DNA from: a virus
Taxonomy: Duplodnaviria > Heunggongvirae > Uroviricota > Caudoviricetes
Virus record (IMG/VR): IMGVR_UViG_2571042636_000010
Direction: 5' to 3' (one strand)
DNA length: 4,419 bases
Each line of letters begins with the position of its first letter. The stretch's first letter is position 1. The notes below the pieces were generated by a model. That model worked only from the letters and a program-made list of their open reading frames with translations. It ran no database searches and was not told the origin of the DNA. Position numbers and translations under genes: made by a program. Below, one piece after another: positions 1,499-4,419 of the stretch.

Positions 1499-1640
1499 AC
1501 AAAAAATATCCTGCTGCTGTTGCGAATTTGTGCCGGGTTTTAGCCATGCCCGGCGCATGGTTTTGTGGTATTTTTCCACCGCCCGCAGTCTTGAAGGGGC
1601 TGTAAAGGGCGCGTGTTCAACTAACCACAAAGGAGTTGTT
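1499..1640. promoter_or_regulatory. putative divergent intergenic/control region between the leftward small-gene cluster and the rightward 155-aa gene
   Basis: A 142-bp gap if the starts at 1498 (-) and 1641 (+) are correct. Contains GC-rich dyad symmetry: GCCGGG (1532-1537) pairs with CCCGGC (1549-1554), and CCATG (1544-1548) pairs with CATGG (1556-1560). A TGgTATTTT extended -10-like motif sits at 1566-1574 on the + strand. No convincing -35 elements found by eye. Confidence 0.25.
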
Positions 1641-2108
1641 ATGGAATTAGATGCTTCTGTGTGTCTGCGAATTTTTGAAAAACACTACGAGCGAGTTGCT
1701 AAAACCTATCGTGAGGTGCTGGATAAAGAAACAGCCAACTCAGCATTTGTTGCTACTCGAGCATTGATTCTCCTTAAATTGGATTTGTTACTTGTCGAGT
1801 ATCGAAGAAATATTGATTCCAAGTGCGTAGTCCTCTTCGGGAAAAATGTGCTTTATCATTATCTTTTCACCCAAAAGGGCGTTTCATTGTCTGATGCCAA
1901 AAATATGTGTCTCCATGACATACTTATTGTTCTCTGGAATGATATTAATGCATATGTAATACCAGAGCATGTATCCGAGCGTATCCAGATTCTTTATAAG
2001 TACGAGCTCTCATCTCCAGTGCCTGATTTAAGTTATGAAGATGAAAGTCTGTTGCATTTTAAGGATTCTGCTTGGGATTTTTATCCTGCCGATACACGAC
2101 TGAATTAA
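1641..2108 (+). CDS. hypothetical protein, 155 aa, AT-rich accessory (moron-like) gene
   Basis: ATG at 1641 is preceded by AAAGGAG (1629-1635) with a 5-nt spacer, the strongest ribosome-binding site in the window. Frame is open to TAA at 2106-2108. My hand count over several 60-nt lines gives roughly 35-45% GC, against roughly 50-60% in the integrase and leftward genes. The track ORF 1458..2108 begins at a TTG and the extension overlaps the minus-strand gene, so the internal ATG is preferred. No family recognised. Confidence 0.6.
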   Translation: MELDASVCLRIFEKHYERVAKTYREVLDKETANSAFVATRALILLKLDLLLVEYRRNIDSKCVVLFGKNVLYHYLFTQKGVSLSDAKNMCLHDILIVLWNDINAYVIPEHVSERIQILYKYELSSPVPDLSYEDESLLHFKDSAWDFYPADTRLN

Positions 2109-2670
2109 GAAACTCATTGTTTCTATCTATTTCAGTCTGGTAGGCCTCTAACTCATGCCGTAATTGTTGTTGTCTTAGTGGTAACTTGTTGCGGCATTTC
2201 AATTCTGCTACAACGGTTTCCAAAAAACTTATCAGTTCTTCATCAGTGTATGAGCCAGCATAAATGTACGGTTTAGTGTTAGCGCATGTACAGTCTGCTG
2301 TTTCTTTAATGAGCATTGATTCGTCATCCATAATCTGTCGATAAAGTTCAAATGCTTCTTCGGCAGGAAACCTGAGCATGACGCCGCATACTGGTTCTAA
2401 AACCAATCCGAACGTTCCCTTTGCGTTATCCCGACAAAAATGTCCGTATTCATCGTCGGGATGCAGGGTGGCATCTTTCAAATCTTCGCCATTCTGAAGC
2501 TTTGATTTAAATGCCATCAGGTCAGCGAACGTTCTGTGTAATTCGTGGTAGTCAATGCTGATTTCAATCTGCGGTTTGCCCGGAAAAACCAGCAAAAGCT
2601 TCTGGTGTGGTTTTTCGTTTTTCAGGGTTTCCAGTCGTTCCAGTAGTGCTTTGTCTTCGTGGTTTGTCAT
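2059..2670 (-). CDS. hypothetical protein, 203 aa, translationally coupled to cox
   Basis: ATG at 2670-2668 lies 1 nt after the TGA stop of the Cox-like gene (2674-2672). The track ORF 2059..2796 starts at an upstream ATG inside cox in another frame, so I prefer the internal start (MTNHEDKALLERLETLKNEK...). The long open frame has a moderate GGGG ribosome-binding site. No catalytic or nucleotide-binding motif recognised. Confidence 0.6.
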   Translation of the reverse strand: MTNHEDKALLERLETLKNEKPHQKLLLVFPGKPQIEISIDYHELHRTFADLMAFKSKLQNGEDLKDATLHPDDEYGHFCRDNAKGTFGLVLEPVCGVMLRFPAEEAFELYRQIMDDESMLIKETADCTCANTKPYIYAGSYTDEELISFLETVVAELKCRNKLPLRQQQLRHELEAYQTEIDRNNEFLNSVVYRQDKNPKQNP

Positions 2671-2671
2671 T

Positions 2672-2953
2672 TCAAAGCCCCAGCCACAGCAACCATGCGT
2701 CTCGTTGTTCTTTCGGGCGTGCAAAGAATGCTTCGCGCATCGCTTTGTTGAACTCCGGGATGTAAACCCAGTTTTCAGCGCGTGAACGCAGTGCATTAGG
2801 GTTCTGCCATTTCACAATTGGAAGTTTGCCGTCAGAAATCATGTCGCTCACAGCAGATGCTGGTTTACCGATCATCTCGGCGAATTTGGGGCCGGGGACG
2901 GCATCAATTGGATAACCAATATTGATATATCGCTCTAGTTCCCTGTCTCTCAT
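2672..2953 (-). CDS. cox: Cox-like excisionase / early-promoter regulator (P2 Cox family)
   Basis: Translation ...FAEMIGKPASAVSDMISDGKLPIVKW...ENWVYIPEFN...ARPKEQRDAWLLWLGL matches my recollection of phage P2 Cox (FAKLIGK...GKLPV...WVYLP...RPKEIRDGWLMWLGL) in order and spacing. It is divergent from the repressor gene, as in P2. Start is either ATG 2953 or TTG 2959; GGAGA lies 5 nt before the TTG and 11 nt before the ATG. Confidence 0.7.
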   Translation of the reverse strand: MRDRELERYINIGYPIDAVPGPKFAEMIGKPASAVSDMISDGKLPIVKWQNPNALRSRAENWVYIPEFNKAMREAFFARPKEQRDAWLLWLGL

Positions 2954-3048
2954 GTGCAATAATTCTCCGTTTAGGGCTATTGGCGGCTTGTATCCGCTTA
3001 TAGCGGTGATGTGTATTGGTAGAAACTTCCACCCTTTAGGAGAATGTT
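2954..3048. promoter_or_regulatory. putative immunity switch region (divergent C / cox control, Pe and Pc-type promoters and operators)
   Basis: An ~90-bp gap between the divergent cox and C starts. The minus strand carries a TATAAG -10-like hexamer (2997-3002) about 40 nt upstream of the cox start. TATTGG occurs twice in direct orientation (2978-2983 and 3014-3019). A short dyad CCGC..GCGG sits at 2994-3006. Assignment rests on the P2/186 face-to-face promoter architecture; exact sites are not established. Confidence 0.35.
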
Positions 3049-3372
3049 ATGGTAGAGACTTCCACCCAGTCAAGAGGGATAGGGGAAAAAATCCGCATGA
3101 TTAGAGATGCTGAAGGTCTTAGCAGACAGCAATTCTTTGAATTGACGGGGATTCCTGCGGGGACGCAAAAGTATTATGAAACTGGACGGGTTGAAAAAAT
3201 AGGTAGTGATATTTTGCTAAAGATCACGCTTCATTCTCAATTTTCTAAATATGCCCTGTGGCTTATGACCGACAATATTGCGCCAGAATCAGGGCAGATT
3301 GCCCCGCCTCTCTCCCCTGATGGGCACGAAAATGCAGTAATGTCGCGCCGCTCCGTCCGCAAAACTGGTTAA
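3049..3372 (+). CDS. C: phage immunity repressor, P2 C-type (short helix-turn-helix repressor)
   Basis: ATG at 3049 with AGGAG (3036-3040) 8 nt upstream; TAA stop at 3370-3372. The 107-aa product contains LSRQQFFELTGIP (helix-turn-helix-like) and YALWLMTDNIAPESGQIAPPL, matching my recollection of P2 C (LSRQQLADLTGVP ... YTLWFMTNQIAPESGQIAPAL). Lies upstream of and co-directional with the integrase, as in P2. Confidence 0.75.
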   Translation: MVETSTQSRGIGEKIRMIRDAEGLSRQQFFELTGIPAGTQKYYETGRVEKIGSDILLKITLHSQFSKYALWLMTDNIAPESGQIAPPLSPDGHENAVMSRRSVRKTG

Positions 3373-3438
3373 CGTTACATTTTGATTTTATTGACTGGTT
3401 AGAGACGGTTTCATTGGCGTCAACCGGAGGGCTTCGCT

Positions 3439-4419
3439 ATGACGATTAAGAAGCTCGAAGGAGGGCAATATCAGGTGGATATTTACCCGCGTGGGCGTGA
3501 AGGCAAGCGCATACGCAGACGTTTCAAGAAAAAACAGGAAGCTATTCTGTTTGAGCGGTATGTGATGGCTAACGTCGAGAAAAAAGAATGGCTCGGCGCA
3601 AGCGTTGATCGCCGTACGCTTGGGGAGTTGCTGGAAATCTGGTGGCTGTTGCATGGTCAGACACTGGAGAACGGTGCAATCGAAAGACAACAACTGGAAA
3701 AGACAATCAGGGCGCTTGGTAATCCTGCCGTTAACCGGCTTGATAAGCGTGAAATTGCCAGGCATCGCGGTGAACGGCTTACAGATGGTATTAGCGCATC
3801 AACCATTAACCGCGATGTTTATCGTTTGTCCGGTATGTTTACCGCATTGAGTAAGCTTGGAGAATTTCGCGTTGAAAATCCCTGTCATGGTTTGCAGCCG
3901 TTACGGGAGGCACAGCCACCAATGACTTACCTTACAAAACAGGAAATCGCCCGATTGCTGGAATTTCTGGAGGGTGACAATCGCCGGGTGGCATTGCTGT
4001 GTCTCAGTACCGGGGCGCGGTGGAATGAGGGAAGCACGCTGCGGGCTGAGCAGGTCAATCATGGACGTGTGACCTTTCTGAAAACGAAGAACGGCAAAAA
4101 AAGGACGGTGCCGATTTCGGAAGTTCTGGAGCGGGAGATCAAAACCTGCGAGACGGGGCCGTTGTTCGATGTGAATTATGCTCAGTTCCGTGAGCAATTA
4201 CGGCGTGTAAAACCTGATTTACCACGGGGGCAGTCAACGCATGTGCTTCGCCACACGTTCGCCAGTTGGTTCATGATGAACGGAGGAAACATTATTGCGC
4301 TTCAGCAAATTATGGGTCATGCCAGCATTAAACAAACGATGGTTTATGCGCATCTTGCACCGGATTTTCTCCAGCACGCGATTACGTTAAATCCGCTTGG
4401 TGGAGGTCTGGGGATTTGA
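3439..4419 (+). CDS. int: site-specific tyrosine recombinase, P2/186-family phage integrase (complete, 326 aa)
   Basis: ATG at 3439 with GGAGG (3426-3430) 8 nt upstream; TGA stop at 4417-4419, the last bases of the window. The C-terminal catalytic region HVLRHTFASWFMMNGGNIIALQQIMGHASIKQTMVYAHL carries the tyrosine-recombinase R..H-x-x-R..Y signature, with LSTGARWNE upstream. The N-terminus MTIKKLEGGQYQVDIYPRGREGKRIRRRF resembles P2-type integrases. Confidence 0.9.
   Translation: MTIKKLEGGQYQVDIYPRGREGKRIRRRFKKKQEAILFERYVMANVEKKEWLGASVDRRTLGELLEIWWLLHGQTLENGAIERQQLEKTIRALGNPAVNRLDKREIARHRGERLTDGISASTINRDVYRLSGMFTALSKLGEFRVENPCHGLQPLREAQPPMTYLTKQEIARLLEFLEGDNRRVALLCLSTGARWNEGSTLRAEQVNHGRVTFLKTKNGKKRTVPISEVLEREIKTCETGPLFDVNYAQFREQLRRVKPDLPRGQSTHVLRHTFASWFMMNGGNIIALQQIMGHASIKQTMVYAHLAPDFLQHAITLNPLGGGLGI

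Follow-up and report, generated by a model that had tools for sequence, protein, structure and literature searches.

A convergent two-gene cassette in the early region of a P2-like prophage: a catalogued moron family with a possible role in exclusion

Overall organization of the locus

The 4,419-nucleotide stretch of IMG/VR record IMGVR_UViG_2571042636_000010 (hereafter the window) harbors on its plus strand a gene of 155 amino acids (1641–2108; ATG at 1641, TAA at 2106–2108), here termed A, whose product is acidic (isoelectric point 5.5), predicted to be all-α and a member of the ECs1072 family. Its 3′ end converges on a 203-residue minus-strand gene (orf203, 2059–2670), with an overlap of 50 bp (2059–2108) that is coding on both strands and holds the last 16 codons of each gene. 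The C-terminal ~83 residues of orf203 (residues 121–203; 2059–2310, minus strand; GC content 38.5%) form a phrog_1744-like domain, here termed B, and residues 1–120 (2311–2670, minus strand; GC content 45%) correspond to a backbone early gene. Upstream of A lies a 45-bp element (1530–1575, plus strand), termed the slot element, which is connected to the start codon by a leader (1576–1640, plus strand) that is predicted to be structured and contains the Shine-Dalgarno sequence. A and B very probably constitute a real accessory cassette on the lysogen side of the phage, and A is considered below as a candidate exclusion factor.

Coding status and composition of gene A

The start codon of A is assigned to ATG 1641, since all homologues begin at the corresponding methionine (MEL...) and the Shine-Dalgarno sequence AAAGGAG (1629–1635, plus strand) precedes this codon with a spacer of 5 nucleotides (nt); an automatic list of open reading frames (ORFs) had extended the frame upstream to TTG 1458. 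An earlier note on this DNA had pointed to the AAAGGAG-N5-ATG arrangement, which is indeed canonical and well spaced as read from the sequence. Its further statement that this is the strongest ribosome-binding site in the window has to be corrected: by anti-Shine-Dalgarno duplex energy, A (−8.2 kcal/mol) ranks second among the gene starts of the window, behind int (GGAGG, −10.0 kcal/mol) and ahead of the repressor gene C (−7.3 kcal/mol).

With a GC content of 38.2% (34.0% at third codon positions), A lies below the window as a whole (46.0%), below the neighboring genes (42.3–52.4%) and below every non-overlapping segment of 468 nt (minimum 38.9%, mean 46.9%, standard deviation 3.7). The lower GC content of A noted earlier is thereby borne out, but the 50–60% then given for its neighbors is too high. 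The AT-rich block reaches past A to about position 2310, with a GC content of 38.4% for 1641–2310 and 47.4% elsewhere in the window.

A profile search of 1.84 billion protein representatives retrieved 37 cluster representatives homologous to A, nearly all of them 141–163 residues in length. Distant homologues with 15–25% identity retain both length and motifs, the ratio of non-synonymous to synonymous substitution rates (dN/dS) between relatives is 0.15–0.43, and the ORF list of the window holds no minus-strand ORF that spans 1641–2058. By these measures A is a genuine protein-coding gene under purifying selection, and the ORF stands as first described, on the strand opposite to the early operon. 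A chance ORF antisense to this operon, or a conserved core early protein of the P2/186 type, could be suspected from the position of A within an operon that is read from the opposite strand and from the fact that long ORFs arise by chance less rarely in AT-rich sequence. Such an origin is extremely improbable and was rejected on the basis of the homologue conservation, the dN/dS values, all of which are below 0.45, the match to a curated NCBIfam model described below and the absence of A from sister phages: it is missing from P88, P88_4B11 and Shae_phiSM, all of which share both flanks, and tblastn of A against a collection of 50,697 phage records, in which P2 and 186 should be represented, gave no match at E ≤ 1e-3. 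By the same results A lacks the conserved presence across P2-like phages that marks their core early genes (cox/apl, the core gene B, orf78–83, cII, fil and dhr).

Family and predicted structure of protein A

A matches the NCBIfam model NF033230 (‘ECs1072 family phage-associated protein’) with 111 bits (E = 4.6e-32, cut-off 70). Residues 8–154 cover profile positions 3–141 of 142, which is near full length, the aligned relatives match the model as well (34 of 34), and near-identical copies of A already carry this name in RefSeq. Accordingly, the earlier impression that A contains no known domain does not hold, although NF033230 is of the ‘hypoth_equivalog’ type with no function attached. The prophage context of the family is found here too, with A between cox and DUF4761 and other members in lambdoid prophages and in ST64B. 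All family motifs are present in A (the R-A...K-L-D helix, Y/H-R, G67 and the C-terminal E-W-D-P). In an alignment of 34 sequences Trp145 is invariant and Gly67 is conserved in at least 90%; among close relatives Arg40, Lys46-Leu47-Asp48 and Arg55 are conserved, and His73 is likewise among the conserved positions. An additional, weak match was obtained to PHROG 5286. By family membership and context, A is best described as a prophage moron from the catalogued NF033230 family, of which it represents a full-length member whose P2-like branch is set apart by low identity and rarity.

The AlphaFold2 model of A (mean predicted local distance difference test, pLDDT, 79; predicted template modelling score 0.80) is all-α and comprises nine helices. 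The protein ends in a conserved D-x-E-W-D-P tail, and residues 149–155 are predicted to be disordered. Fold searches with A revealed no detectable fold relative, the best matches among toxin-antitoxin (TA) type folds being HEPN/HepT with E-values above 1. Pfam gave no domain, a sub-threshold GNAT match (15 bits versus 23.8) being treated as noise. The same applies to the chance-level matches of A to Cas7f (E = 0.011–0.017, 13 bits), the only ones in PADLOC-DB v2.0.0 (2023), which contains defence models up to 2023; other members of the A family and the alternative slot cargo had no match in this database. In these searches the defence or exclusion role raised in the earlier note finds no direct counterpart, as A has no meaningful PADLOC score, no Pfam domain and no fold relative.

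The predicted properties of A could also fit a host-directed factor for lysogenic conversion or counter-defence that plays no part in phage exclusion. A is a soluble, acidic, all-α protein, and its conserved tail resembles the partner-binding peptide of small inhibitors. Moreover, family members are frequent in both pathogenic and commensal E. coli, the SfIV type occurring in 421 of 5,426 complete genomes, and a phage CsrA-like gene often adjoins A. However, Pfam, NCBIfam and the fold searches revealed no similarity of A to known anti-defence or virulence proteins, and by position and orientation A resembles the classic exclusion genes more than early anti-defence genes, whose transcription is normally shared with the early operon. 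A host-directed role of this kind is considered unlikely.

Partner B and the borders of the cassette

Because many P2-like prophages encode the counterpart of residues 1–120 of orf203 on its own, as a protein of about 135 residues, the 203-residue protein is regarded as a backbone gene product to which B has been fused. Homologues of the N-terminal part have a length of 121–173 residues, most of them about 135, and cover only 56–63% of the query; at locus L003 the N-terminal domain is present without A or B. B stands alone at loci L002 and L011, as an ORF of 91 residues counted from the first ATG, and the fused B of the window lacks an internal Shine-Dalgarno sequence. The recombination joint of the fusion lies at about 2305–2332. 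Here homology with sister prophages bearing other cargo restarts, after having ended at 1634/1635 in front of the start codon of A.

B is predicted to form a helical hairpin or coiled coil and carries the motif KPxIYxGSxxDEELISFLE; an AlphaFold2 model of orf203 calculated from the single sequence was too poor for use (pLDDT 48). The match of the window's B to phrog_1744 is weak and covers residues 131–183, whereas free-standing B genes adjoining A in other prophages match this family with E-values of 4.8e-34 to 7.6e-11. Besides the slot element, the only stretch of the cassette that can be aligned with SEN4-type loci at the nucleotide level is 2058–2119, with 85% identity. The convergent 3′ overlap of A and B recurs at other loci, where it measures 25–227 bp.

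Among 29 IMG/VR contigs carrying the slot element, the B profile matches at all eight loci that bear A and at none of the 21 others, a count to which the loci, including three divergent A lineages, do not contribute as phylogenetically independent cases. From composition, homology borders and linkage, A and B are taken to form an AT-rich cassette of about 0.7 kb (about 1636–2310). If A is not an exclusion factor, the strict linkage and the convergent overlap still indicate a regulatory pair.

One form that such a pair could take is a TA-like addiction or stress module, in which A and B would be toxin and antidote, either way round, regulated via the 3′ overlap. This is suggested by the strict co-inheritance of two small genes, by the convergent overlap in most contexts, by the transcription of both the A and the B homologue in ST64B lysogens and by a shared motif of about 20 nt (inverted repeat I3) upstream of both starts at an SfIV-type locus. 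However, neither A nor B matches any toxin or antitoxin family in Pfam, NCBIfam or PADLOC. The layout is convergent and not the usual co-directional, autoregulated operon, so that the pair does not conform to a type II TA module. Furthermore, a B that is fused behind the repressed promoter Pe without its own Shine-Dalgarno sequence is ill-suited to be a constitutive antitoxin, and in Brenneria an IS21 insertion divides B but leaves A intact, so that A would have to be a tolerated toxin. Type I convergent TA systems such as txpA/ratA consist of a small hydrophobic peptide and an RNA antitoxin with overlapping 3′ ends. A and B resemble them in being co-inherited convergent units whose 3′ ends overlap, but differ in that both are conserved proteins of 70–200 residues, again with no family match. 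Taken together, an addiction module appears improbable.

A conserved element upstream of gene A

The slot element contains an inverted repeat with arms of 8 bp (AGCCATGC at 1542–1549 and GCATGGTT at 1555–1562, plus strand), followed by an invariant TGnTAnTTT (TGGTATTTT in the window; 1566–1574, plus strand), which resembles an extended −10 promoter motif. In P2-like phages of Yersinia, Salmonella and E. coli the element is 93–96% identical despite unrelated flanks, and in Brenneria the stem of the inverted repeat shows two compensatory changes. RNA folding of 1515–1645 yielded a z-score of −2.75. The leader is partly conserved across cargo types, its ACCACAAGGA region being kept in front of different cargo ORFs. 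In addition to the window (1530–1640), the slot is carried by loci L003, L004, L007, L008, L010 and L029–L057.

In the 29 IMG/VR contigs, which were identified by a 29-mer of the element, a plus-strand ORF usually begins 63–71 nt past it. The cargo belongs to the A family in eight cases and to a family of 60-residue proteins in about ten; the remainder comprises a 78-residue family, a 155-residue protein unrelated to A, a protein of 156–159 residues with two transmembrane segments, proteins of 68–74 residues and others. Thus at least six unrelated plus-strand cargo families, none of them annotated, are located behind the slot element, which also precedes plus-strand cargo in phages of Yersinia, Salmonella and Brenneria. 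The cargo proteins tested had no match in either Pfam or PADLOC. From the conservation in front of unrelated cargo it follows that the element, the leader and the Shine-Dalgarno sequence belong to the phage backbone and not to the acquired gene, exchange taking place at the start codon. The 29–45 nt of the element therefore provide a sequence handle for harvesting cargo genes that are presumably expressed in the lysogen.

In the annotation of Yersinia phage vB_YenM_42.18 (L007, NC_070913), gp08 (2547–3212, minus strand, 221 residues) is a junk-like sequence. The slot element of this phage is followed by a plus-strand ORF of 156 residues (2733–3203) with two hydrophobic helices, and gp08 is probably annotated on the wrong strand.

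As to the function of the slot element, we infer that it is the promoter, possibly with an operator, of the cargo gene, with the extended −10 at 1566–1574 and a transcription start near 1580. Alternatively, the hairpin together with the T-run could act as a plus-strand terminator or attenuator. A scan of the whole window against Rfam, including the 45-bp element, gave no match at E ≤ 1. A P2 late promoter (TGT-N12-ACA) and a LexA box were also considered, and by eye the sequence fits neither.

No plus-strand terminator is predicted in the window between A and C, and the transcript of A might consequently extend antisense over orf203 and cox. Since interference between convergent promoters is established in the related phage 186, transcription from the slot could serve as a brake on the lysis-lysogeny decision, colliding with, or being antisense to, the early operon just downstream of Pe/PL, damping its leak and stabilizing lysogeny; protein A, B or both may modulate the switch as well. 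Consistent with this, A invariably runs antisense to the phage operon around it and lies close to the immunity region, and the conservation of the slot in combination with variable cargo raises the possibility that plus-strand transcription itself is what matters. However, A is under purifying selection and conserved over P2-like, lambdoid and ST64B contexts with unrelated switches, a spread not expected of a phage-specific regulator. Moreover, the ST64B pair is situated in the late region, at a great distance from the switch, and many sister prophages manage without A and B. A brake on the switch is thus rather unlikely, if slightly less so than a host-directed factor or an addiction module.

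Horizontal exchange and occurrence in other prophages

Sister prophages with 85–97% nucleotide identity in the flanks carry unrelated genes in the slot, and many of them lack both A and B. The proposal of the earlier note that A is a horizontally acquired moron agrees with this patchy distribution, with the breakpoints at 1634/1635 and 2305–2332 and with the difference in GC content between cassette and remaining window, and draws its support from the swapping of the cassette, the exchange of slot cargo and the transcription of the ST64B homologue in lysogens. The branch of A represented in the window is rare, occurring in 2 of 5,426 complete E. coli genomes. Members of the P2-like branch are at most 46% identical to SEN4-type members and 15–39% identical to the remaining ones. 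A tblastn search with a distant family member (P0027) reaches SfIV, ST64B and Klebsiella phages.

Homologues recur beside cox and C in other P2-like prophages: in SEN4-type prophages and in Brenneria the gene order is C, B, A, cox, with B converging on A. In Brenneria rubrifaciens (L010) an IS21-family element with IstA/IstB-like ORFs (6574–8540) is inserted in B, remnants of which are found at 8622–8774 and about 6440–6553; the convergent A is intact. The A/B pair adjoins the cI repressor gene in lambdoid prophages of Providencia, Proteus, Arsenophonus and others. Shigella phage SfIV and its E. coli relatives carry the pair as well, and in Salmonella phage ST64B it lies between a Q-like gene and the holin gene, in the late region. 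The orientation is the same in all contexts, with A running against the flanking phage operon and B along with it.

Several of these loci show additional features. In lambdoid loci of the Providencia type (L018, 4702–4890; L024, 2–169; L025, 2710–2895) a phage gene of the CsrA family directly adjoins A and comes next in the leftward operon. Two B-like genes beside A were observed at L019 (5233–5805 and 5849–6070) and L025 (3251–3919 and 3924–4103). In such loci the long B comprises 190–220 residues and overlaps the 3′ end of A by about 200 bp, and the short B comprises 59–73 residues and belongs to phrog_1744; the long B of L025 was missed by the gene caller. Two members of the pair lack an annotation, namely the 68-residue B gene of SfIV (L022, NC_022749; 4365–4616, minus strand; phrog_1744, E = 4.8e-34) and the A-family gene of ST64B (L023, NC_004313; about 3281–3715, plus strand), which equals STMMW_20121.

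Expression in lysogens

ST64B gene STMMW_20121 is the sole family member for which direct data on transcription in a lysogen exist. The ST64B protein (NC_004313) scores 97.8 bits against the A-family profile, and the identity of its gene with STMMW_20121 of S. Typhimurium D23580 is given by the distance of 162 bp to the holin gene and the 71-bp overlap with sb50, both of which match D23580 exactly. In D23580, STMMW_20121 is reported to be transcribed from its own promoter, antisense to lytic genes, in almost all conditions (PMC7067206). Its level is 60–270 transcripts per million (TPM) in most conditions listed, compared with 0.1–41 TPM for holin and lysozyme, and transcripts of the B-like sb50 (STMMW_20131) are present in lysogens too, with 22–257 TPM (PMC7067206). 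ECs1072 itself gives a regulated signal on arrays of E. coli Sakai. Expression in the lysogen, as predicted in the earlier note, is thus directly documented for the ST64B homologue only; by analogy, A of the present prophage is probably expressed in its lysogen.

The ST64B pair resembles the pair of the window in belonging to the same A family, in the convergent B-like partner with overlapping 3′ end and in being antisense to lytic genes. It differs in its location, outside the early operon, and in its B, which belongs to phrog_3501 and resembles phrog_1744 in the motif only.

A possible exclusion function of the pair

The arrangement of A and B is reminiscent of sieB. In lambda, sieB (34482–35036, plus strand) abuts N (35037–35438, minus strand), and the A/B pair of the SfIV type has the same convergent layout. 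Like sieB of lambda and P22, A is a gene antisense in a repressor-controlled early operon that converges on the first gene or genes of this operon. The C-controlled promoter of SEN4-type phages is likewise followed first by B, and in the window B comes after cox. SfIV-type loci display the order cI, terminator, two operator-like 15-mers, B and convergent A. The two 15-mers share one sequence, which has 87% identity with a 15-mer of the cI-cro region, and a plus-strand terminator is located just past the start of B, after the pair. This order of elements places B as the first gene of the repressor-controlled leftward (PL) operon, with A convergent and antisense to it. At the related locus of E. 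coli 2014C-3061 (L058), a sequence of about 20 nt (AATCTGGTTATCCCCAACAA) upstream of the start of A (2465–2484) has an inverted copy upstream of the start of B (3141–3160), which suggests a shared 5′-untranslated or operator motif of both genes.

A homologue of SieB, however, A is not. In a comparison by hhalign, the A-family profile and lambda SieB gave a probability of 0.14%, and no Pfam match at E ≤ 0.1 other than the chance hit to GNAT was found. Owing to this lack of homology, A was not filed under SieB. Two further differences are that A has no clear membrane segment and that escape would depend on a distinct gene convergent with A, namely B, and not on an in-frame shorter product. In the sieB/esc/sas system of P22, a superinfecting or induced phage escapes SieB via products of its own early transcription (PMC12197685).

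By analogy, the following mode of action can be envisaged. In the lysogen, C would repress Pe and A would be made from the putative slot promoter, which would provide the prophage with an exclusion or abortive-infection factor comparable to sieB. Upon lytic growth of the resident phage, or of a relative that carries B, the early transcript would yield B among its first products, and B might neutralize A. The same transcript would run antisense through A, which could thus be shut off by convergent transcription. The full sequence of events, comprising slot cassette, lysogen-made A and B as escape factor, is put forward as tentative and falls somewhat short of an even chance; its core, A as exclusion factor with B as escape factor, is a possibility of slightly lower standing still.

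Several observations weigh against this proposal. A scan for consensus promoters found no σ70 site upstream of A. SieB is membrane-associated, but no convincing transmembrane segment is present in A; its most hydrophobic helix (residues 34–52) contains conserved arginine, lysine and aspartate residues, which makes a membrane location unlikely. Transcription of STMMW_20131 in lysogens is a misfit for an antidote that is made strictly during lytic growth. Finally, the literature searched for ECs1072, STMMW_20121 and sb50 yielded expression data only, with no function or phenotype.

Exchangeable genes of this kind have precedents in P2, where the non-essential genes old, tin and fun(Z) are rich in AT, have transcription of their own and are exchanged at fixed hotspots. 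The main hotspots of P2 are gpA-gpQ and the tail region, and their proteins are unrelated to A, which has no PADLOC match. A further difference is that in the present case a conserved upstream element is retained and the point of exchange coincides with the start codon of the cargo. The int-gpA interval constitutes a minor defence hotspot of P2-like prophages, accounting for 8% of systems (PMC13586616).

The literature searched appears to contain no account of the A-B module, of its placement like that of sieB in different phage types or of the conserved plug-in slot. Unrelated temperate phages repeatedly carry the module where sieB is classically found, and one of its branches is present in hundreds of E. 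coli genomes. If the proposed function were correct, the combination of a lysogen-made effector, an antidote among the first lytic products and antisense shut-off would generalize the logic of P22 sieB/esc/sas, and an exclusion system would be spread over P2-like and lambdoid prophages of Enterobacterales, one branch being found in ~8% of complete E. coli genomes. The broadest form of the proposal is that A and B represent an unrecognized two-gene exclusion or abortive-infection system whose fold has no known relative, and that the slot is a plug-in site for candidate defence genes. This form is considered doubtful, more so than the exclusion and escape roles by themselves.

Phage context and mosaic structure of the window

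The window covers the immunity and early genes of a prophage of the P2-like group (Peduoviridae) and of the P88/SEN4 type. The integrase gene int (3439–4419, plus strand; assigned by Pfam and PHROG) is preceded by the gene of a C-type immunity repressor with a helix-turn-helix domain (3049–3372, plus strand; phrog_147, 5.9e-31; HTH_31). On the minus strand, cox (2672–2953; Pfam Phage_Cox, 7.9e-24; phrog_272) is the first gene of the early operon, which is transcribed from Pe and passes antisense through A; orf203 follows next after cox. Past the slot the operon resumes with a DUF4761 gene (1148–1498; Pfam, 2.2e-69), followed by a phrog_3800 gene (850–1137; PHROG) and a DUF4754 gene (597–839; Pfam), all on the minus strand. 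Since cox, DUF4761 and DUF4754 are located on the minus strand and C and int on the plus strand, A is co-directional with repressor and integrase and antisense to the cox-led operon, and the neighbors placed by Pfam agree with the arrangement described at the outset.

The window is a mosaic. Left of position 1635 it is of the P88 type (Xuanwuvirus), with 85–97% nucleotide identity (85–88% between the left arm and P88-type phages), and its Int, C and Cox share 79%, 73% and 63% protein identity, respectively, with those of SEN4-type phages (Senquatrovirus). In SEN4-type phages the slot is positioned between C and cox, and in the window between cox and DUF4761.

In an AT-rich stretch of the early operon (35% GC), a minus-strand ORF (487–600) encodes a hydrophobic peptide of 37 residues (MSIFMSWLVLIISVICAIGIMRIIHSVKKIERFFSDE). 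Its relatives are annotated as hypothetical or membrane proteins only, and the peptide could represent a small membrane toxin or a Kil-like peptide.

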